From assembly GCF_030013205.1 (NCBI RefSeq), contig NZ_CP122648.1: a DNA stretch of 64,000 nucleotides. One strand, 5' to 3'. The DNA is from Escherichia coli (GTDB lineage Bacteria; Pseudomonadota; Gammaproteobacteria; Enterobacterales; Enterobacteriaceae). A model generated the notes under the pieces. That model did no database searches, was not told where the DNA came from, and was given only the letters and a program-made list of their open reading frames with translations. Position 1 is the stretch's first letter, and each line of letters opens with the position of its first letter. A program made the position numbers and the translations under genes. Positions 8,919 to 47,379 of the stretch are shown here, piece by piece.

Positions 8919-10604
8919 ATGTACGATTTTAATCTGGTGTTGCTGCTGCTTCAGCAGATGTGCGTTTTTTTAGTCATTGCGTGGTTAATGAGTAAAACGC
9001 CATTATTCATACCGTTAATGCAGGTCACGGTTCGTCTGCCGCATAAATTTCTCTGCTACATCGTCTTTTCCATCTTCTGCATCATGGGCACCTGGTTTGG
9101 GTTGCACATTGACGATTCTATTGCCAATACCCGTGCGATAGGCGCGGTAATGGGCGGCTTGCTCGGCGGTCCGGTCGTCGGTGGGCTGGTTGGTCTGACC
9201 GGCGGGTTACATCGATATTCGATGGGGGGCATGACCGCGCTAAGTTGCATGATCTCGACCATCGTTGAAGGATTGCTCGGCGGCCTGGTACACAGCATCC
9301 TGATCCGTCGCGGGCGCACTGATAAAGTCTTTAACCCCATTACCGCCGGTGCCGTCACGTTCGTCGCTGAAATGGTGCAAATGTTGATCATCCTGGCGAT
9401 CGCCCGACCTTATGAAGATGCGGTGCGTCTGGTGAGTAATATTGCTGCGCCAATGATGGTTACCAATACCGTCGGCGCGGCGCTGTTTATGCGTATATTG
9501 CTCGATAAACGCGCGATGTTTGAAAAATACACTTCGGCTTTTTCTGCCACTGCGCTAAAAGTGGCTGCCTCGACGGAAGGCATTTTGCGCCAGGGGTTTA
9601 ACGAAGTTAACAGCATGAAAGTGGCACAGGTGCTGTATCAGGAGCTGGATATTGGTGCAGTCGCGATTACCGATCGAGAGAAATTGCTGGCCTTTACCGG
9701 AATTGGTGACGATCACCATTTACCCGGCAAACCGATTTCTTCGACTTACACCTTAAAAGCGATTGAAACCGGTGAAGTGGTCTACGCTGATGGCAACGAA
9801 GTACCTTATCGTTGCTCTTTGCATCCGCAATGCAAACTGGGGTCGACGCTGGTAATTCCGTTGCGTGGTGAAAATCAGCGGGTGATGGGCACCATCAAAT
9901 TGTATGAAGCCAAAAACCGTTTATTCAGTTCAATCAACCGCACGCTGGGCGAGGGGATTGCGCAACTGCTTTCGGCGCAGATCCTCGCCGGGCAATATGA
10001 GCGGCAAAAAGCGATGCTCACCCAGTCAGAGATCAAACTGCTTCACGCCCAGGTGAACCCCCATTTTTTGTTTAATGCGCTTAACACCATTAAAGCGGTG
10101 ATCCGCCGCGACAGCGAACAGGCCAGCCAGCTGGTCCAGTATCTTTCCACTTTTTTCCGCAAAAACTTAAAGCGGCCTTCGGAGTTTGTTACTCTCGCAG
10201 ACGAAATTGAACATGTGAACGCTTATCTGCAAATTGAAAAGGCGCGCTTCCAGTCGCGGTTGCAGGTCAACATTGCTATTCCGCAAGAATTATCCCAGCA
10301 GCAATTGCCCGCGTTTACCCTGCAACCGATAGTGGAAAACGCCATTAAACATGGGACATCACAACTGCTCGATACAGGGCGAGTGGCAATCAGCGCCCGA
10401 CGTGAGGGGCAACATTTGATGCTGGAGATCGAAGACAATGCCGGTTTGTATCAACCGGTAACCAATGCCAGTGGGCTGGGGATGAATCTGGTGGATAAGC
10501 GTTTACGTGAACGGTTTGGCGATGACTATGGGATAAGCGTCGCCTGTGAGCCTGATAGTTACACCCGAATAACGTTACGACTACCATGGAGGGACGAGGC
10601 ATGA
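8919..10604 (+). CDS. btsS: Sensor histidine kinase (LytS-type)
   Basis: ORF 8904..10604; ATG at 8919 gives 561 aa; N-terminal membrane domain, GAF-like region and HATPase C-terminus. Confidence 0.85.
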
Positions 10605-38267: not shown

Positions 38268-38359
38268 TTTATTAACGCGATTGTAAAACTGCGGTTTTTA
38301 CTCGTTTACAACGCGTGCGCTGGACATTACCATCCTCCTCTGCGATTTATCATCGCAAT

Positions 38360-38437
38360 CAAACGACTCGGGGTGCCCTTCTGCGTGAAGGCTGAGAAAT
38401 ACCCGTATCACCTGATCTGGATAATGCCAGCGTAGGG
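38360..38437. repeat. attL: 78-bp copy of thiM TPP-riboswitch sequence (left junction of inserted element)
   Basis: Perfect 78-bp identity to 47250..47327; sequence to its left is native rcnR-thiM intergenic DNA, sequence to its right is element DNA. Confidence 0.75.
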
Positions 38438-38520
38438 GGCCAAAATAGTCTTGAAAATTATGTGGTTGTATCTCTTTTTGACCATAAATCATGCTGTTAA
38501 GGTACAAAAAGGGGTCGTTT

Positions 38521-39828
38521 ATGAGGTCAAGAACTCTCCCATACACATTTCAGCGAAACGGTAATTACTATCTACAAATCCGGCTTTCGGATGGTCGGAT
38601 ATACAAAAAATCACTTTTTACTGACAGTTATCGCGAAGCATCGGCGTTGATGATTGGCCTTACTCCGCACATTCCTTTCGTTAAATCACTCGCTACTCCG
38701 TTGCCGCAATTTAATAAGTTTGTTTCAAACTTGATCGCTTCGTCACGTAACGTAATGATTCCGTTGCCACTCCCTCAGCAATTGAACAATATTTCTAAAG
38801 AAGTTTTGCAGCTTCAACCACCAGCCAAACCGGAAAAGGTGCTAACACTTGCTGATGCGTGGGCTATGTACAAGGAGGAAAGAGGTCGAAATTGGACAAA
38901 ATCGATCTCAATGGCAAATGAGCGTTATATGGAGGTATTGCTTGTTGTCTTGGGAAAAGAAACAGACGTAACGGCAATCACCAAACAAGATATTAAGCGA
39001 GTAATGGAAACTGTCGAAAACTTACCAAAGCGTGTAGTGCAACCGTATAGGTCAATGACTATTCAGCAACTAATCGAATGTGATGATGTGCTGCCAGAGG
39101 ATTTAGTTGGTGCTGAGGCTGTACATAAGCACCTTAAAATCTACAAATCGTTATTCAAAACATTTCTGACTGAAAACAAAGATATTCTATCTAAGTCTCC
39201 GACTGATGGAATAGTAGCGGCACCATCCAAAGCTAGGTTTGGTGCATACAGTGCAGCAGAAATGAAAAAATTTGTAGGATGGGCACTAAAGCAGCCTGAT
39301 GGATGGCAGAAGTGGATCACTTTGTTGTTGGCGTACACAGGAGCCAGAAGAGGTGAGATTGCTAAACTGGAGAAGTCGCAGATCAAATTTGATGAAGATA
39401 GCCAGCGGCACTATCTTCTGATCGCGGAAAGAAGGCTGGGTAAAACTGAGAATGCTACAAGACAGGTAGTGATTCATCCCAAACTGATTGAGTGGGGGTT
39501 TCTGGATTTTGTTAACCGCCAATGGAAAGAGAAAATCTTTTCGGAAGTCTCAGGTCGAAATATGTCAAAGATAGGTAAAGTTCTTTCAGATGTTCGTGAT
39601 CAGCTTGATATTCCTTATCTTGATGATTATGGGCAGCGGCGCTTGGTGCATAGTTTCCGGCATACTATGATTTCTACTTGTTTAGCTGGTTGGGTGAGTA
39701 ATTTGGCGCATCTGCAACAGGTGGTAGGTCATGAGAAAAGCGGTTTAGGGATTACCAGACGCTATTTGCACTCTTTTCCTTTACGTTCAATTTGTTACGT
39801 GATTGATGGTTTGGACTGGTTAAATTGA
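38521..39828 (+). CDS. Tyrosine-type site-specific integrase
   Basis: ORF 38491..39828; RBS AAGGGG before ATG 38521; catalytic-region motifs ARRGEI, HSFRHT, and terminal RRYLHS tyrosine. Confidence 0.85.
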   Translation: MRSRTLPYTFQRNGNYYLQIRLSDGRIYKKSLFTDSYREASALMIGLTPHIPFVKSLATPLPQFNKFVSNLIASSRNVMIPLPLPQQLNNISKEVLQLQPPAKPEKVLTLADAWAMYKEERGRNWTKSISMANERYMEVLLVVLGKETDVTAITKQDIKRVMETVENLPKRVVQPYRSMTIQQLIECDDVLPEDLVGAEAVHKHLKIYKSLFKTFLTENKDILSKSPTDGIVAAPSKARFGAYSAAEMKKFVGWALKQPDGWQKWITLLLAYTGARRGEIAKLEKSQIKFDEDSQRHYLLIAERRLGKTENATRQVVIHPKLIEWGFLDFVNRQWKEKIFSEVSGRNMSKIGKVLSDVRDQLDIPYLDDYGQRRLVHSFRHTMISTCLAGWVSNLAHLQQVVGHEKSGLGITRRYLHSFPLRSICYVIDGLDWLN

Positions 39829-39869
39829 TGTGAGCCTCGTGAGAAAGGGAATAAATAGAGAAAATCAAG

Positions 39870-39897
39870 TTGTTACCTCATTGGCAGGGGATATAAT
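39870..39897 (+). promoter_or_regulatory. Candidate sigma70 promoter for the nuclease gene
   Basis: -35 TTGTTA (39870-39875), 16-bp spacer, perfect -10 TATAAT (39892-39897), about 30 nt upstream of the ATG. Confidence 0.4.
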
Positions 39898-39927
39898 GAC
39901 CATATTGTCATCTTGAGGAACAAAAGT

Positions 39928-41499
39928 ATGGTTGCTCGTTCTAACCTTGTAAATTTAGATGCACTGATTAAGCGTGCTGATTTAGGTTTAAAGATCCAAG
40001 ATAACTCTTCATTTGAAACGCTAAACAGTATTCCTGCAAGAGAATTGAAATCAGGAAGTGGAATTGCTGCGCTTCTGAGAAAACCAGATTTCCAGCGTGA
40101 AACAAATCATTGGGGGCCTGAGCAGGTTGTATCGCTTCTCGAATGCTACATCAATGGTGATTTGATACCTTCCGTTATTCTTTGGCGGTCTTCAACCCAT
40201 CTTTTTGTGATCGATGGTGGTCATCGTTTAAGTGCGTTACGTGCTTGGGTTGAAGATGATTATGGCGACGGTCATATATCCCATCAACTTTTTGGGCATG
40301 ATATTCCTCGTGAACAACGCCGCGCTGCAGATAGAACGAGAAAGCTTGTGAAGGAGAGGGTCGGTAGCTGGGAATATTATCAGAAGTTGCTTGCCGATGA
40401 TGCTTCATTGACCGAGGAACAGCAGAGAAGAATCAGCGTATTAACATCTCGTGGAATCTCAGTCCAATGGGTAGTGGGTGATGTAGATAAGGCAGAAACT
40501 TCATTTTTTAACATCAATATGAAGGGAACTCCTCTTGATGCTATCGAAGAGATGCTTCTAAAAAATCGCAAGAAAAGTATTCCGATAGCAACCCGAGCAA
40601 TTATTCGTGCCGGTAGAGGTCATCGCTATTGGTCGGGGTTTGATCAGAGCATTGCCCAGCAACTTGAAGATAAATCTGCAAAGCTGCATCGTTTGCTGTT
40701 CGAACCTGAAGTTGATCGCCCTATTAAAACTCTTGATCTTCCATTAGGCGGTTCTAGGGGGGTCAGGACAGCGATCCAAGTTTTGAAAGATTTCTTACTG
40801 ATCACTGATTGCAACCAGAATGGTGTTTTGAAAAAAATCGAAGCCTACCCTGATGATGCGTCGGGTGCTGATACGTTAAGAATCCTTTCCAAAGCCACAT
40901 CATTAAGCAATAGAATTACAGGCAATGGCGATGGTAGCTTGGGGCTTCATCCAGCGATTTATTTTTATGGTCCGACTGGAATCCACTCAACGCCAATGTT
41001 TCTAGGAACTGTGCTACTGGTGGCAAAACAACTCTCTAACAATAATGGTCAATTCTTTAAAGACTTCACAACAATCAGATCTAGGCTTGAGAGAATAATG
41101 ATCGAATTTAAGGACTTGATCGCAATGATAGTACAAAAACCAGGTAGTAATGTCCGAGTGGCTCGCTACTGTGATTTTTTAAATGCGGTGATCAAATCAC
41201 TCAAGCAGGGAGAGAATATTGATGAGAGTAAGCTTATCGAGCTGGCCGAATTGGAGGGGAGAATACTCTCTGGAGATTTTAAGAGAACATCAGCAAAAAT
41301 CAGCGATGAACAAAAAAGTAAGGTGTTCATTGACGTGGCTCTGCGCAACGCTTTGAAATGTCCGATTTGCCAAGGTTACCTTGATACTGAAAAGTCAGTT
41401 TCTTATGATCATATCGTACGTGTCCGTGAGGGAGGAGATGGTAATTCTGACAATGTACAGTTGACACACCCTTACTGTAACCAGTCAGTGAAGTGTTAA
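39928..41499 (+). CDS. DUF262/DGQHR (ParB-like) domain + C-terminal HNH endonuclease fusion; candidate defence nuclease
   Basis: N-terminus FQRETNHW ... FVIDGGHRLSALRAW (QR/DGQ(Q/H)R-like ParB-fold motifs); C-terminus CPICQGYLDTEKSVSYDHIVRVREGGDGNSDNVQLTHPYCNQ (HNH His-Me finger). 523 aa from ATG 39928. Confidence 0.7.
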   Translation: MVARSNLVNLDALIKRADLGLKIQDNSSFETLNSIPARELKSGSGIAALLRKPDFQRETNHWGPEQVVSLLECYINGDLIPSVILWRSSTHLFVIDGGHRLSALRAWVEDDYGDGHISHQLFGHDIPREQRRAADRTRKLVKERVGSWEYYQKLLADDASLTEEQQRRISVLTSRGISVQWVVGDVDKAETSFFNINMKGTPLDAIEEMLLKNRKKSIPIATRAIIRAGRGHRYWSGFDQSIAQQLEDKSAKLHRLLFEPEVDRPIKTLDLPLGGSRGVRTAIQVLKDFLLITDCNQNGVLKKIEAYPDDASGADTLRILSKATSLSNRITGNGDGSLGLHPAIYFYGPTGIHSTPMFLGTVLLVAKQLSNNNGQFFKDFTTIRSRLERIMIEFKDLIAMIVQKPGSNVRVARYCDFLNAVIKSLKQGENIDESKLIELAELEGRILSGDFKRTSAKISDEQKSKVFIDVALRNALKCPICQGYLDTEKSVSYDHIVRVREGGDGNSDNVQLTHPYCNQSVKC

Positions 41500-41887
41500 A
41501 ATCACGTTTCACTTTTCGTTGTCATTTGTATCGAACGTTTTTGAGAAAGGGCAGGATTGCGAGCGAGTTACCAGCGTAAACAGATAAATACTGTTTTCGT
41601 AAGCCCACTGTCGCCGCTTTCCGCTCTGCAATTTTTGCTTGTCGGGGGGCTAATTGTGGCTTTGCTTGCCATAACATTAAAAGTCAGTAATATACTGAAA
41701 ATTAATACAATACTTTTCATATATCCCATTGAATATTCAGTTCATTGCCAAATAGCAAGCGGAGCACTCTCTCTTTAACGTTGTAGTAACTTAGTTGAAC
41801 AATTTTATAATATAATTTGTCTAAGTTGGTTGATGTATCAAAGCCTTTTTCTGAAGAATGAATTGGCGTGATTACTCACGCCAGATT

Positions 41888-42235
41888 TTAAATTTCAGAA
41901 CATAGGCTAAGCGTATAGACAGCAGTTTGCCCATCATTGTTAGTCGGTCTCATAACGAAAACAGGCTGACTCCCATTATCAATGTATGTGACTGCAACCC
42001 CTCCATCAGGTGTGGCATACATTTTTGCGATGCTTTTTTGACCTATAAAATCAAGTCTCCAAGTCTTACCACCAAGATGTATTGTCATTTTTTTATCTTG
42101 TATATCAAAAGTTGAATCTACAGAAACTTTCTGACTTCCCGAGTCAATATGACCTTCCTGTATTGCTTTACAGGAAAAGGTTGTGGCGTGGCCCATCACT
42201 GGAATTAACAAAGCGGCAAATACTAGTTTTTTCAT
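41888..42235 (-). CDS. Small secreted protein of unknown function (115 aa)
   Basis: RBS GGGAGA; MKKLVFAALLIPVMGHATTFSC signal peptide; no recognisable family. Confidence 0.5.
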   Translation of the reverse strand: MKKLVFAALLIPVMGHATTFSCKAIQEGHIDSGSQKVSVDSTFDIQDKKMTIHLGGKTWRLDFIGQKSIAKMYATPDGGVAVTYIDNGSQPVFVMRPTNNDGQTAVYTLSLCSEI

Positions 42236-42345
42236 TTGTCTCCCTTGATGTGTCAAATGGATGGTGATGCTAATAATACATGATTGATTCAAAATGTCAC
42301 GATTAGTGCGTGGTTAATTGGTGCGTCAAATTGCATCTTTGTGCC

Positions 42346-42810
42346 ATGCGAAAGAATCTGAGATACCTTTTTGGACAACGAGTAAAAGAGTTCCGTATAG
42401 CTATTGGCTTAAGCCAAGAGGCCTTTGCAGATCGGTGTGGTTTTGCTCGTAGTTATATGAGTCGAATTGAGCGTGGTTGCTCTAATGCATCTCTTGATGC
42501 AATTGAGGTTCTGGCTGACGCTTTGCGTATTGAGCCTTGGCAGTTACTAGCTTCTGATTCAAGGAAAACTGATGATCAGGAGGTACTTGTTCCTTATGCT
42601 GCAGATGGGTCGTGTTTTCATCCAGGATTGGCAAGTACTCGCGATGGTTCGTTTAGAGTAGGGGAAAAATCAGCCCAGAAACGTTTCAGTTCGTTCAATG
42701 ACGCTCTCGAATACCTTCGTGGAATGGAAACCGCGAAGTGGCGTAGGCCTAATGCTAGTGGTAATTGGGGAATTGTATCTGCGGTTAAATGGGATCGACT
42801 GAATCAATAA
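42346..42810 (+). CDS. XRE-family HTH regulator with C-terminal extension
   Basis: LRYLFGQRVKEFRIAIGLSQEAFADRCGFARSYMSRIERG HTH; start could also be the GTG at 42310; divergent from secreted-protein gene. Confidence 0.65.
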   Translation: MRKNLRYLFGQRVKEFRIAIGLSQEAFADRCGFARSYMSRIERGCSNASLDAIEVLADALRIEPWQLLASDSRKTDDQEVLVPYAADGSCFHPGLASTRDGSFRVGEKSAQKRFSSFNDALEYLRGMETAKWRRPNASGNWGIVSAVKWDRLNQ

Positions 42811-42976
42811 GATATCAGTAATTTTCGGGCCACTCCACAAGGCAATAAGTGGCTTAGTGGTGATTATCGAAGGGGAATACAAGCGAGCACCTAGGCACCA
42901 TTGCAAGAACCGCTCAACGCTGAGATCAGCAAGCCCCGATTTCTGCCGACCGTCCCTGTCAAATATCAAGGAGGCA

Positions 42977-43516
42977 TTACGCCTCCTCTTCTTCCTTCTT
43001 AATTCGCTGTACCGTCGAAGGAGCAACATTAAAGATCTCGGCGGTTTTACGCACTGACACGCCATCAGAAAGGGCTTTCTTTATACCTTCTCGATCCACT
43101 GCCTTACCTTTACCACGCTTTCTAGGATTGACGGCTTGCGCTTCTCGTTTACGTTCTAACATCAGTTCACGTTCACACGTTGCCACTGCCGACAACATAG
43201 TAAGCATCATTTTTCCCATCGCGCTTGTAATGTCTGCAATGATCCCTTCTTTGTGAAAGCGAACAATTACACCACGATTATTAAGTTGTTCCACTAAGGC
43301 AAGAATGTCTAAGGTGTTACGCCCTAAACGATCAAGAGAGTGGACGTGTAAGGTGTCGCCTTCTCTCAGATAGGCTAAACACGCTTGTAAGCCTGGGCGG
43401 TTAGTGTCTTTACCAGACAGCTTATCTTCAAAGACTTTGTCGAGAGTTAGTCCTGCAAGCTGGCGATCAGTATTTTGATCTACAGTGCTCACACGCTTAT
43501 AGCCGATATTGCTCAT
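42977..43516 (-). CDS. Small serine recombinase (resolvase/invertase family)
   Basis: MSNIGYKRVSTVDQNTDRQ with catalytic Ser; C-terminal HTH; RBS AAGGGGA. Confidence 0.8.
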   Translation of the reverse strand: MSNIGYKRVSTVDQNTDRQLAGLTLDKVFEDKLSGKDTNRPGLQACLAYLREGDTLHVHSLDRLGRNTLDILALVEQLNNRGVIVRFHKEGIIADITSAMGKMMLTMLSAVATCERELMLERKREAQAVNPRKRGKGKAVDREGIKKALSDGVSVRKTAEIFNVAPSTVQRIKKEEEEA

Positions 43517-43565
43517 AAAATCCCCTTGATGTATCGATTTGGCACCACTCCAATGCAAATGAGTG

Positions 43566-43653
43566 TGTTGTATTCATTTGGTCTGTTTCAAGCCTTATGG
43601 ATACGGAATATTACACGATTTAGCTGTATTCATTTGGTATGCCTAATGGATAC
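43566..43653. promoter_or_regulatory. Two res-like palindromic sites upstream of the serine recombinase
   Basis: tgtattcatttggtctgtttcaagccttatggatacgg and tgtattcatttggtatgcctaatggatacgc; each has imperfect inverted half-sites GTATTCAT / ATGGATAC. Confidence 0.4.
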
Positions 43654-43785
43654 GCAGGGGGATAGATTAAATGGTGTTCTGTTTATACAGGTTTATTTGT
43701 TAGATCAACAAGTTGGCATTTCTAAACAGATGTTTGAACGTTGCCAAATGCCTTGACAACACAAGAAAATGGCTTGCTATGAACG

Positions 43786-44100
43786 CATTACACGAAATAA
43801 GGCTATAAAAACAAAATAAATTTTAAAATTTGCACAAAAACGAGAAAACTCGTTCGACAAATAATAGATTGGTTTTTAATCGACAATTTCTGACAATTTC
43901 TGATGGTGCTCTGTAAACCGCATTACACAAGGCTTTGCGAAAGTGATGTAAAAGTGAAGAAAGTTAACATTGCACTTTGAAGCCATTTTTCATTGGATTT
44001 TTTAGTAGGGAATTACACAGGGAATAGAGAGCATTATTCTATGATTTACACAGGGAATATAGGGGATTATGGCACACACATAGAAAGGCATTACACAGAG
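43786..44100. repeat. Iteron-like direct repeats, family A (TTACACAGGGAAT-type, 5 copies)
   Basis: cattacac(g/a) at 43786 and 43921, aattacacagggaat at 44011, tttacacagggaat at 44046, cattacacagag at 44089. Confidence 0.5.
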
Positions 44101-44163
44101 TGAGTGCTATGTGATGATTGGTAGTAACGGTAGGTCACTGTGAGCTACCCCCCACAGAATTCT

Positions 44164-44340
44164 GTTACCCCTATCAAGTCTAACAGGGGTTTATAAAGAA
44201 TAATAAACCGATGATACCCCTATCAATATTGATACCCCTATTAGCTTTGATATGACTACCCCTATCAAAACTGATACCCGATAAGAATAAGTTAATAAGA
44301 ATAATTAAATAATATTCTTTATATCTATATATATGATCTT
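44164..44340. repeat. Iteron cluster, family B (GATACCCCTATCAA x5) plus AT-rich unwinding-like tract: candidate oriV
   Basis: tacccctat at 44166, 44215, 44233, 44257 and tacccgat at 44275 (spacing 18-49 bp), followed by about 60 bp of nearly pure A/T (44281-44340). Confidence 0.55.
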
Positions 44341-45503
44341 TTTGCCTTCCGGCGTTAGCTTCACTCTCTGGCAAGCAGCCTTACTCCGCTATCTTTGGGC
44401 TTCGTGGCTGGCCCGTTCCGCTCACACCGAAAGCAAAGCGTTACTCTTCTTCGTGTAACTATCGTTGGCGGTAACGCCACACGAAGAAATACTATTGCGC
44501 TGTGCGCAGTAAGAGTAATCACCTAACCAATCACCTGATTGCTTACGTGTTAACTCTCTCTAACTCTTAATTACCCTCCTACATTTAATAACTCTATTAT
44601 TCTCTGTAGTTGTGTAATTACTCGAAGAGAGAGCGGCTAAAGCTCAATTACACTCTGCTTTCCTCGTGTAATTTCACTAAGCCTCAATACAATTTCACTT
44701 CCTACATTCTGTAGTCGTGTAATAGTTTTCGGTGGGGAAAAGCCAGAGGCGACACCGAAAGAAAATTCTGATCTTATTAATCTTATCTATCTTAGTTAAT
44801 CTTCTTACTTACTTTATCTACTTTATTATTAATAATAGCTTTATAAGCTCTCTGTGTAGCTCTCTGACGCAAGAAACAGCATTCAGGAAGGGAATCACCT
44901 TAGAAAAGTGTTCTTTGCGTCATAATGTGTTTTATGAAGGATTCAGAGGTGTTTCATAACACAAGGTATAGAGGATATTTTAGTTAATTAAAAATAAGGG
45001 GGCTAAATGCTTCTCTAACAGCATTAAGCAGGGTAGAGAATGGAAATGCATTGCCTACGTATATATAAACTCACTACAAGGCTTTACAGAGCGTTTTATA
45101 AAGTAACTAATCTAAGAACTCTCTGTTTTATATCTATCATCATCTTTCCATCATCTAACAAATACAAAATAAGCCCCTTAAATAAGCCTCTGGCGAGCTA
45201 AACAGCCATTACATAAGGGAATGTATTTCTTTTATCAAAACTTCGTTAGAACGCGTTTTAGAGCGTTTTATACAATAAGGAAGAATAGGACCGTCCGCAA
45301 GAGCACGAATTGCTAAGAAAGAATGTAAACGCATGAAAAATATCAGATTTTTTATGAAAATATATTGACAAATGTTTCTTTATATGTAATAATAGGTATT
45401 AGAGAGACAGAAAAACATTCTTCTCTAAATAATCAAAATCAATGCACTTTGAAGCCGTCAGGCTTGCAAGGTGTTTTTCTTTTAACTGAATAAGGAGTTT
45501 TTT

Positions 45504-45692
45504 ATGAAATGGTTTACACCGGAACACGTCGTAGAGGCATTTAAAAAAGGTGAGCTAACACGACATCAAGTAGTAATGAATCGTAATATGGCAAGGAGTC
45601 GAGGTTATCCAGAGCGTGAAAAATGTTTCGATGCAGCACTAAAAATTATTGATAAATTAAGAAAAAATGAAAAAGGATCTGAAACAGAGTAA
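45504..45692 (+). CDS. Hypothetical small protein (62 aa)
   Basis: Strong RBS AAGGAG 7 nt upstream of ATG; basic small protein, no family recognised. Confidence 0.45.
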   Translation: MKWFTPEHVVEAFKKGELTRHQVVMNRNMARSRGYPEREKCFDAALKIIDKLRKNEKGSETE

Positions 45693-45711
45693 AGAAGAGA
45701 AGGAGAAAACT

Positions 45712-45882
45712 ATGAGCGAAACTACAGAAAAGAAAAGACAACCACGCACTTGCTTTCATATTCCTGATGAAGTATTTCAGGTGTTGTTTAAAGAAGCCAG
45801 AAGTAAACGTATCACTGTTACAGATTACATTCTTGATATGTTGAAAAGAGAGGCTGAAACACTCTCAAATAAAAGCAAGTGA
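45712..45882 (+). CDS. Ribbon-helix-helix (CopG/Arc-like) DNA-binding protein
   Basis: RBS AGGAG; PRTCFHIPDEVFQVLFKEARSKRITVTDYILDMLKRE fits beta-alpha-alpha RHH pattern. Confidence 0.5.
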   Translation: MSETTEKKRQPRTCFHIPDEVFQVLFKEARSKRITVTDYILDMLKREAETLSNKSK

Positions 45883-45936
45883 TTTTTATCACCATAGTAG
45901 CGCCGTAGAGCGTGATTACATCAAGGAGCTTTTTTA

Positions 45937-46599
45937 ATGATTAAACATACAAAACCTTTCTTAGGAATAGATTATGACTTACTAGCAATCACTTCCCTAG
46001 TGATTAACGGCAAAACAAAAGAAGTAAAACTACATCATAAGATCATTTATTCTTATTTGTTAAGTTTATCTGGCACATATCAAAAGGTAACACCATCTTT
46101 GAAAGGTATTGGTGAGCGGTTAGGAGTAGGTACAGATCAGACGGTACGCCGTCATATCAAAGATCTTGTTTCTTTTGGATGGTTGAAGATTGAGGAAAGG
46201 GCAGGTAGCACAAATGCTTATATTGTCCTTCCTTATGAACAAGAAGCCCAGACACAACAAGAAGCTACCGTTAAAGCTGTTCAGGAACAGCTTCCCCCTA
46301 CGGAAGATAATAAAGAGTTTTCTTTTGATGTTCTTGATGATTGGGATGCGCCTTTACCTTGGGAAATGGAAGAAACGCCATCTGATGAAAAGGTAGCTAA
46401 TGATAATGAGGAGGATGTGTTAGAGAATTTTGCCTCTCTTATCATCCAGGAGAAACACACAAGAACAGGAGGGGCATCATTTATAGAATTTGCAACATCG
46501 TTAGCCTGTAAGCACAGGATAAAGCTACCAAATGGTATTGAGGCATATTTTGCTAAGAAACATCCCAAAGTATATGAAGACTTTGATATTCCATTTTAA
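45937..46599 (+). CDS. Winged-helix protein, candidate replication initiator
   Basis: RBS AAGGAG; wHTH-like SLKGIGERLGVGTDQTVRRHIKDLVSFGWLKIEE; acidic C-terminal half; sits next to iteron region. Confidence 0.5.
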   Translation: MIKHTKPFLGIDYDLLAITSLVINGKTKEVKLHHKIIYSYLLSLSGTYQKVTPSLKGIGERLGVGTDQTVRRHIKDLVSFGWLKIEERAGSTNAYIVLPYEQEAQTQQEATVKAVQEQLPPTEDNKEFSFDVLDDWDAPLPWEMEETPSDEKVANDNEEDVLENFASLIIQEKHTRTGGASFIEFATSLACKHRIKLPNGIEAYFAKKHPKVYEDFDIPF

Positions 46600-46794
46600 T
46601 AAGGAGGGTTATGATTCAATATTTAGTAAAAAATAAAGTAGAATTCATCTATTCCACTCTCTAAAAATCTATCTGTGTAATATAAAATGAAAACATTATG
46701 GTATTAGCTATGTATTGGTTATTGTTCTTTCTGGCCTTAGAAACATATGCAAGTAAGTCTGGAAAACGAAAGTAATATATTGATGATTTGTTTG

Positions 46795-47052
46795 TTATAA
46801 CTTCGTGGTGTCAAGTCCAGCAGTTTTGAGTCGCTCGGTAAGATTTCTCATTTTGCTGAACTCTGTACCAAAGCTGGCTTTAAGTCCTACACCTTCGCAA
46901 AACTCTTTTGCCGTGACGTTTTTCAGATGGTCAACATATTTGGTCATCTGGAGGTGCATTTCCATCGTTTGGCTATTTCGTGATGCGCTGCTAATGGCTT
47001 GCTTAATGTTCTCGTAGATCTGGGTTCTGTCATTGTTTATCCCACCTATCAA
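46795..47052 (-). CDS. Hypothetical small protein (85 aa) at element right end
   Basis: Minus-strand ORF adjacent to attR; function unknown (could be an excision/regulatory factor). Confidence 0.35.
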   Translation of the reverse strand: MIGGINNDRTQIYENIKQAISSASRNSQTMEMHLQMTKYVDHLKNVTAKEFCEGVGLKASFGTEFSKMRNLTERLKTAGLDTTKL

Positions 47053-47245
47053 ATTTAGAAAAATAATATTAATTAGCTAATTAATATAATCAATGGTTTT
47101 CACCATCTGAATGATAGCCGTTAATTGTTTCTTTTTCATTCCTTCTATGGGGTACAAAATGGGGTACACAGAGAAGAAGCAATTAATGGAGGCGAGCTTG
47201 CATCTGCAAGCCACTTCCCCTAAGCTGGCACAAAATATAGAGATT

Positions 47246-47379
47246 CAACCAAACGACTCGGGGTGCCCTTCTGCGTGAAGGCTGAGAAATACCCGTATCA
47301 CCTGATCTGGATAATGCCAGCGTAGGGAAGTCACGGACCACCAGGTCATTGCTTCTTCACGTTATGGCAGGAGCAAACT
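47246..47379 (+). promoter_or_regulatory. TPP (thi-box) riboswitch controlling thiMD
   Basis: Contains the canonical thiM aptamer sequence CAAACGACTCGGGGTGCCCTTCTGCGTGAAGGCTGAGAAATACCCGTATCACCTGATCTGGATAATGCCAGCGTAGGGAAGTC and expression platform up to the SD (ggcaggag). Confidence 0.85.
47250..47327. repeat. attR: 78-bp direct repeat (native riboswitch copy adjoining thiM)
   Basis: Identical to 38360..38437; downstream sequence continues as native thiM leader. Confidence 0.75.

Follow-up and report, generated by a model that had tools for sequence, protein, structure and literature searches.

A controller-protein-like XRE regulator with an additional C-terminal domain, encoded divergently from a signal-peptide protein in a small Escherichia coli island

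A two-gene module at positions 41,888 to 42,810 was analysed in a 64,000-nucleotide stretch of an Escherichia coli chromosome (NCBI RefSeq assembly GCF_030013205.1, contig NZ_CP122648.1), which is referred to as the window. The module consists of a gene for a 154-amino-acid (aa) helix-turn-helix (HTH) regulator of the XRE family and a divergent gene for a 115-aa protein with a signal peptide, and it lies in an integrative island of about 8.8 kb. The regulator is probably an autoregulatory switch of the type formed by the controller (C) proteins of restriction-modification (R-M) systems; it belongs to the island backbone, would bind a conserved pair of sites, and would also govern the divergent envelope gene through the overlap of one site with the leftward -35 element, while its C-terminal domain (CTD) would add a second function. 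A known type of switch would here carry an undescribed extra domain and, in mobile defence islands, have orphan exported proteins as partners. E. coli commonly harbours small "integrase-only" defence islands, and the XRE gene is a conserved backbone gene of one family of them.

The regulator, its control region and the exported protein

Both open reading frames (ORFs) of the divergent pair that a first-pass annotation of this DNA had proposed matched RefSeq coding sequences (CDSs), and the module stretch was 100% identical to that of pig isolates, e.g., K_EC180, in which RefSeq annotates the same two CDSs (Table 1). In the regulator, Pfam HTH_31 (9e-12) and HTH_3 (2e-9) spanned residues 9-63 only. 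An AlphaFold2 model of the regulator (mean predicted local distance difference test score, pLDDT, 89.5) showed HTH helices at residues 5-19, 24-31, 35-42, 50-60, and 65-68, which form the five-helix lambda-repressor-like fold of the XRE/Cro-C1 class; the HTH domain extended over residues ~5-70 and was followed by a disordered linker at 72-77. The top PADLOC model was "Control_protein" (E 5e-17), Foldseek matched the HTH domain to C.MunI with 54% identity, and the identity to C.AhdI was 48%. The domain is thus close to known C proteins in sequence and in structure and, judged by these homologues, is a relative of the R-M controller proteins and not of the CI-type phage repressors.

The region upstream of the XRE gene was aligned in 27 distinct sequences, comprising the window and 26 orthologous loci (Enterobacterales, Pseudomonas, Pandoraea, other Burkholderiales, Gallionellaceae, Nitrosomonadales, and others). 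The ~62 bp before the XRE ATG (42284-42345) aligned across these sequences, and similarity ended farther upstream, at about -65; BLAST alignment to the Yersinia loci began at 42288, and the left part of the intergenic region was specific to this neighbour gene. The most constrained element of the block was GCGTGG with its flanks, most positions of this core being conserved in at least 90% of the sequences. Since the synonymous positions of the gene's best-conserved codons (SRIERG) vary freely in the same loci, the non-coding core appears to be under a constraint of its own.

Around this core lie two conserved 11-bp candidate sites with centres 15 bp apart, and the spacer between them, CGTG, belongs to GCGTGG. 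The orthologs had CTC...GAG, CAC...GTG, or CAC...GAG at site 1 and ...GAT(T/A)AGTC at site 2. The geometry equals that of the C.AhdI operator, for which a 15-bp centre spacing was reported (PMC1885659), but the sequence is unlike classical C-boxes, with half-sites of CAC-N5-GTG and a CGTG spacer versus GACT-N3-AGTC.

Two back-to-back promoters were predicted in the same region. The leftward promoter of the small gene had 10 of 12 consensus matches, the best on that strand, with a transcription start site (TSS) predicted near 42266, and its -35 overlaps site 1. A GTGACA-16/17-TAT(C/G/T)AT or AATAAT arrangement was found at the same offset from the XRE ATG in seven loci (L007, L024, L025, L027, L030, L038, and L039). 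The -35 of the predicted XRE promoter is overlapped by site 2, and TGGCCn-17/18-CA(C/A)ATT ending at -7/-8 was found in several orthologs, e.g., L024, L025, L030, L031, L045, L046, and L049. There was no Shine-Dalgarno (SD) sequence before the XRE ATG, and because the TSS is predicted at or beside this ATG, the XRE mRNA is probably leaderless.

The first-pass annotation had given the intergenic region a length of 110 bp, which is exact, and had suggested three GTCAAAT/GTCACGA-like motifs in it as operators. All three motifs are present (GTCAAAT at 42252-42258 and 42325-42331; GTCACGA at 42297-42303), two of them in the conserved block, and the spacer does hold conserved, operator-like sequence together with the predicted promoters; the candidate operator, however, is the C-box-like site pair and not a GTCAAAT repeat. 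GTCAAAT was rejected as an operator, being neither enriched in the window (6 copies versus 11.4 expected) nor conserved at XRE orthologs outside the Enterobacterales; three of the six copies lie within 713 bp around the XRE gene. The 13-mer TTGRTGYRTCAAA has three copies in the 64 kb (41830, 42245, and 42318) versus 0.05 expected, for a pattern that was defined after seeing the data. A third operator within the coding region (42463-42476, two mismatches to the core) was also rejected, as this segment encodes SRIERG and its synonymous positions drift among orthologs.

The CTD of the regulator covers residues ~78-154. An unassigned extension of about 90 residues had been noted before; the lack of an assignment holds, with no Pfam, NCBIfam, or PDB match, while the domain measures ~75 residues and is both conserved and folded. 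The model showed a compact beta-beta-beta-alpha-beta-beta-beta fold with pLDDT >90, and the sequence carried the strongly conserved motif VPxAxDGSxFHP...VGEK...FxxFxEALxYL...WRRPNxxGNWGxVSAVxW. A CTD-only search of 1.84 billion representative proteins returned 457 clusters at E<=1e-3, in which the domain stood alone (~80 aa) or was fused, mostly at the C-terminal end, to DNA-related enzymes and other modules (ASCH, UDG-like, GIY-YIG + RNase_T exonuclease, or uncharacterised modules of ~230 aa). Because no Pfam family or solved structure matches it and because it occurs alone or in varied fusions, the CTD is, on its distribution, an undescribed, mobile domain associated with DNA-handling domains. 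The CTD was fused to an ASCH domain or encoded directly downstream of an ASCH gene (L071, 4373-5549; proteins P0152, P0156, and P0166), which suggests a functional link between the two.

The N-terminus of the 115-aa protein (MKK / LVFAALLIPVM / GHA|TT) has, by inspection, the features of a typical Sec signal peptide (residues 1-17, with cleavage predicted between GHA and TT) and no lipobox. In an alignment of 18 homologs, the first ~19 residues were variable and the mature part was highly conserved, with C22 and C112, near the mature termini, invariant; the mature part comprises ~98 aa and is beta-rich. The family was narrow (29 clusters, all from Enterobacterales where named), two of the homologs are labelled "Secreted protein" in UniRef, and the protein matched over its full length phrog_35183, a PHROG with no function assigned. 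It had no Pfam match at E<=1, no PDB profile match at E<=10, and no NCBIfam or PADLOC match, and in these libraries no significant profile match to known periplasmic inhibitor, exclusion, or immunity families, e.g., MliC/PliC, Ivy, or TraT. The earlier suggestion of a toxin-like secreted factor gained no support from the comparisons made, and no similarity to toxin families was found. Structure prediction of both proteins had also been proposed; it gave a confident model for the regulator, while that of the 115-aa protein (18 homologs; pLDDT 43.5) was unusable and too poor for a fold search. We conclude that the 115-aa protein is real, by its signal peptide a predicted exported protein, beta-rich, and probably disulfide-bonded.

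Table 1. Positions of the module, its candidate control elements, and the surrounding island features in the window.
Feature	Position	Strand	Details
XRE regulator gene (154 aa)	42346-42810	+	HTH at nt 42358-42555; CTD at nt 42577-42807
115-aa protein gene	41888-42235	-	RefSeq CDS WP_000737404; SD sequence AAGGGAG 5' of ATG
Divergent control region	42236-42345		110 bp, between the two ATGs
Candidate site 1 (distal, O_L-like)	42298-42308	+	Pseudo-palindrome CAC-GATTA-GTG; -48 to -38 from XRE ATG
Candidate site 2 (proximal, O_R-like)	42313-42323	+	GTTAATTGGTG; -33 to -23 from XRE ATG
Predicted sigma-70 promoter of the small gene (leftward)	42273-42300	-	-35 GTGACA (42300-42295); 16-bp spacer; -10 TATTAT (42278-42273)
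Predicted weak XRE promoter	42311-42339	+	-35 TGGTTA (42311-42316); 17-bp spacer; -10 CATCTT (42334-42339); read from sequence
GC-rich hairpin	41863-41884		Directly 3' of the small-gene stop codon; terminator-like on both strands
Integrative island carrying the module	38359-47345		Bounded by two thiamine pyrophosphate (TPP) riboswitch copies, 38359-38454 and 47249-47345
GmrSD-type (DUF262 + HNH) modification-dependent nuclease gene	39928-41499	+	Variable cargo of the island
Frameshifted remnant of a gene for a 68-aa secreted, Cys-containing protein	41509-41729	-	tblastn 50-55% over residues 27-68
Invertase/resolvase-like serine recombinase gene	42977-43516	-	Convergent with the XRE gene
Replication-initiator-like gene (220 aa)	45937-46599	+	PHROG matches to replication-initiation and DnaD-like helicase-loader families, E 1e-10 to 1e-7

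Distribution and neighbours of the regulator

Full-length XRE homologs with 58-81% identity belonged to the backbone of small islands that form one family. In these islands, a DUF6538-type tyrosine integrase usually came first, often followed by NIPSNAP and DUF1643 genes, then by a serine resolvase and variable cargo (e.g., Gabija-like OLD+UvrD, NA37-type, or PDC-S60), with the XRE gene near the island end. Out of 5426 complete E. coli genomes, 913 (about one in six) carried XRE homologs, including O157:H7 and some plasmids, and 174 carried the small gene. The regulator was also found in Yersinia, Enterobacter, Pseudomonas, and Burkholderiales, and GTDB genomes yielded ~374 loci in total. In sister islands at thiM, the small gene, the XRE gene, and the recombinase gene were kept at ~95% identity while the cargo beside the integrase differed, the slot of GmrSD being taken by a 241-aa HNH endonuclease (L107) or a 316-aa hypothetical protein (L108).

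On the divergent side of the XRE ortholog, the neighbour gene encoded a signal-peptide protein, a lipoprotein, or a transmembrane (TM) protein in eight of ten mutually unrelated neighbour families. These comprised a signal-peptide superfamily of 122-265 aa (Yersinia, O157:H7, Enterobacter, Serratia, and Pseudomonas), a 165-aa protein with two TM segments, lipoproteins of 71 and 169 aa, signal-peptide proteins of 137 and 204 aa, a 148-aa TM protein, and the 115-aa protein of the window. Given an assumed background of about one third envelope proteins, the probability of such a result is ~0.005. The exported and membrane families had no Pfam, NCBIfam, or PADLOC match; the sole Pfam match among the neighbours was FkbM methyltransferase, for the cytoplasmic neighbour of L043. 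Exported proteins outside any known family thus recur as neighbours of the regulator, at a rate well above chance. The 115-aa protein itself is not a specific partner, as the genome counts show.

In five loci (L024, L025, L027, and L030 at ~9737-10132; plasmid locus L106, 7639-8511), a DUF6998 gene lies directly downstream of the XRE ortholog on the same strand, and the DUF6998 proteins match the PADLOC model "mREase_II" (methyl-directed restriction enzyme) with E 2e-70. By these matches, XRE-DUF6998 is the classical controller-then-nuclease order without a methyltransferase; it is absent from the window.

Proposed switch and competing explanations

Classical C proteins are single-domain proteins encoded upstream of a co-transcribed nuclease gene. 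The regulator resembles C.AhdI, C.PvuII, and C.Esp1396I in the sequence and fold of its HTH and in having paired candidate sites, pseudo-palindromes 15 bp apart, just 5' of its own gene. With the C proteins of R-M systems it also shares a predicted weak and probably leaderless promoter, a place in a mobile defence element, and, for some orthologs, a position directly 5' of a restriction nuclease gene. It differs from them in its size (154 aa, compared with ~70-100 aa), in the separately folded, conserved CTD, in the lack of a methyltransferase from the locus, in its half-sites, and in its pairing with a divergent exported-protein gene.

In C.AhdI, two sites 15 bp apart lie about 30 bp upstream of the gene, the distal one activating and the proximal one repressing, and the mRNA is leaderless (PMC1885659; PMC2275141). 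For a Kpn2I-type C protein, divergent C and R promoters have been described (PMC6237814, as summarised in PMC12707154); the module would be similar, with one regulator, candidate sites in a short spacer, and predicted back-to-back promoters, but the partner there is a restriction nuclease and here an exported protein. The module is unlike CapH-CapP of CBASS in that no CapP-type metallopeptidase is adjacent (the island annotation has no peptidase gene, and the island proteins tested had no peptidase-family match), the CTD is unrelated, and the regulator is tied to the island backbone instead of to one defence system. The island as a whole resembles the "integrase-only" defence islands of E. coli (Hochhauser et al. 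2023, PMC10121019) in its small size, its integrase and recombinase genes, and its variable defence cargo. In a term search of the main text of that paper, XRE regulators, serine recombinases or resolvases, and the thiM site did not come up, and its main text appears to give no account of this regulator, the CTD, or the exported-protein pairing. Searches of the literature on DUF6538, DUF1643 with integrase, the thiM hotspot, and GmrSD with a controller protein yielded no description of the module, nor was a description of the regulator, its CTD, or the pairing found.

As a C-protein-type switch, the 154-aa protein would bind sites 1 and 2 through its HTH domain, just upstream of its own weak promoter. 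With the distal site occupied, the XRE promoter would be switched on, as in C.AhdI or C.PvuII, and cooperative occupancy of the proximal site, over the -35, would shut it off; the outcome would be a self-limiting, delayed switch once the island enters a cell. Because site 1 overlaps the -35 of the predicted strong leftward promoter, the same regulator would also control how far the divergent gene is expressed, most likely as a repressor, and the product of that gene would here be a Sec-exported, disulfide-bonded periplasmic protein. The CTD would most likely add a second nucleic-acid or ligand contact or a higher-order assembly. The regulator offers a testable handle on island regulation, with a defined 50-bp putative operator and two predicted promoters.

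Several points weigh against this reading. Nothing is co-transcribed downstream of the XRE gene in the window, unlike in the case of classical C proteins, since the gene is followed by a hairpin and then by the convergent recombinase gene. Site 2 of the window (GTTAATTGGTG) is a poor palindrome. Where the neighbour is the 165-aa membrane protein, no leftward promoter was evident at this position, so control of the divergent gene may not be general. Promoters and operators were called by consensus scans and conservation only, and proteins were called exported by a simple hydrophobicity and cleavage-site heuristic, not by a trained predictor. The 115-aa family was mostly found without this XRE gene: other thiM islands have a ~75%-identical 116-aa homolog together with a 68-aa secreted protein and a different resolvase, and these XRE-less islands, with the unequal genome counts, indicate that the 115-aa protein and the regulator are not obligate partners.

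The XRE-less islands and the genome counts also speak for the main rival, by which the two genes would be incidental neighbours, the XRE protein regulating only itself and the 115-aa gene being an independent "moron"-type accessory gene with a constitutive promoter of its own. The end of conservation at about -65 upstream of the XRE gene agrees with it as well. Against it, the best leftward promoter has its -35 within the conserved block, where it overlaps site 1, an envelope-protein neighbour recurs in eight of ten unrelated families, and the pair is kept while cargo is swapped; we therefore consider incidental neighbourhood a possible but somewhat unlikely explanation.

It is rather unlikely that the regulator is a CI/ImmR-like master repressor of the island, which would silence excision, replication, or transfer genes and use the CTD for inducer sensing or oligomerisation. 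The first-pass annotation had proposed the repressor switch of the element, and as far as the protein is a backbone gene of the island family, usually the last before the island end, "regulator of the element" is a reasonable description. The two-domain layout of HTH and CTD and the best PHROG matches, which were phage transcriptional regulators or repressors, point the same way. However, the nearest relatives are C proteins instead of CI, residues 78-154 contain no S24 peptidase or other Pfam match as in CI/LexA-type repressors, and there is no ImmA-type partner. The XRE gene has no excisionase, integrase, or replication gene beside it or divergent from it, its distance from the integrase being 2.5 kb in the window and roughly 4-8 kb elsewhere, and the regulator was virtually absent from genuine phage genomes.

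A role as true controller of the nuclease cargo, in which the XRE protein would delay or limit GmrSD expression, appears quite improbable. The order of XRE and DUF6998/"mREase_II" in the five loci given above is in its favour, as is the occurrence of a 56%-identical GmrSD homolog near the XRE ortholog in a Burkholderiaceae metagenome-assembled genome (L044). In the window, however, GmrSD lies upstream and is parted from the XRE gene by two leftward genes and a hairpin, a search for a C-box-like match upstream of GmrSD found none, and the sister islands swap GmrSD for unrelated cargo and keep XRE. A toxin-antitoxin pair, with XRE as antitoxin and the small protein as secreted or periplasmic toxin, is scarcely plausible: the matches of the HTH to HipB, MqsA, PezA, and HigA-type antitoxin models were weak and, in NCBIfam, all far below the cut-offs, the XRE gene is divergent from one neighbour and convergent with the other instead of sharing an operon with either, the small protein carries a signal peptide and resembles no toxin family, and the partner family changes between loci while XRE stays ~75-80% identical.

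An extension of the C-protein-type switch would make the CTD a nucleic-acid-binding or sensing domain that turns a timing switch into a signal-responsive one, and XRE-CTD with its divergent envelope protein a two-gene module for exclusion or defence, widespread in beta- and gammaproteobacterial islands, with the variable exported protein as effector; this is a speculative idea to which we give a low probability.

The island at thiM and its other genes

The island is inserted between rcnR and thiM, at the thiM TPP riboswitch of E. coli, and the flanking riboswitch copies had Rfam scores of 61.9 and 71.2 bits. An Enterobacter island (L023) was inserted at the same riboswitch site. The gene order in the window was tyrosine integrase, GmrSD-type nuclease, 68-aa gene remnant, 115-aa gene, XRE gene, serine recombinase, an ORF-poor region of 2 kb, and the replication-initiator-like gene, and no recognisable transfer genes were found in the island. 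Since the integrase ATG (38521) lies 66 bp downstream of the left riboswitch copy on the same strand, expression of the integrase could be under thiamine-riboswitch control. With the 220-aa replication-initiator-like protein, the island may replicate after excision.

Owing to the terminator-like hairpin at its 3' end, the small gene would be monocistronic. The gene for the 68-aa secreted protein, a frameshifted remnant in the window, is intact beside the 116-aa homologs in islands L016, L023, and L109.

Modules meet at 42960-42997, a mosaic junction, and the recombinase module on its far side is also present in other elements. In the avian pathogenic E. coli strain BEN2908 (L112), the recombinase, the gap, the small genes, and the 220-aa regulator stand together at tRNA-Thr; because this unit recurs as a whole, the island is, from such comparisons, a mosaic joined near 42960-42997. 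The gap (43560-45500) consists of ~2 kb with no credible ORFs and has short direct repeats at 43569-43654.

Imperfect inverted repeats at 42243-42265 and 42949-42971 (17 of 23 nt), each with TGTCAAAT, flank the XRE gene, and the right arm, which falls on the mosaic junction, adjoins a terminator-like hairpin (42969-42987). An invertible switch, in which these repeats would serve the invertase-like recombinase beside them, was considered and rejected: all of the matches listed, from about 50 of 239 E. coli genomes, were collinear single pieces, and none was inverted.

A contig from human faeces deposited as "UNVERIFIED Bacteriophage sp." (L110; GenBank MT836560.1, 9704 bp) appears to be an essentially complete island of the family. 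It contains an integrase, NA37-type cargo, a resolvase, two small signal-peptide proteins, and the XRE-CTD regulator, while phage structural genes were not evident; it could represent an island that was wrongly classified or one packed into virus-like particles.

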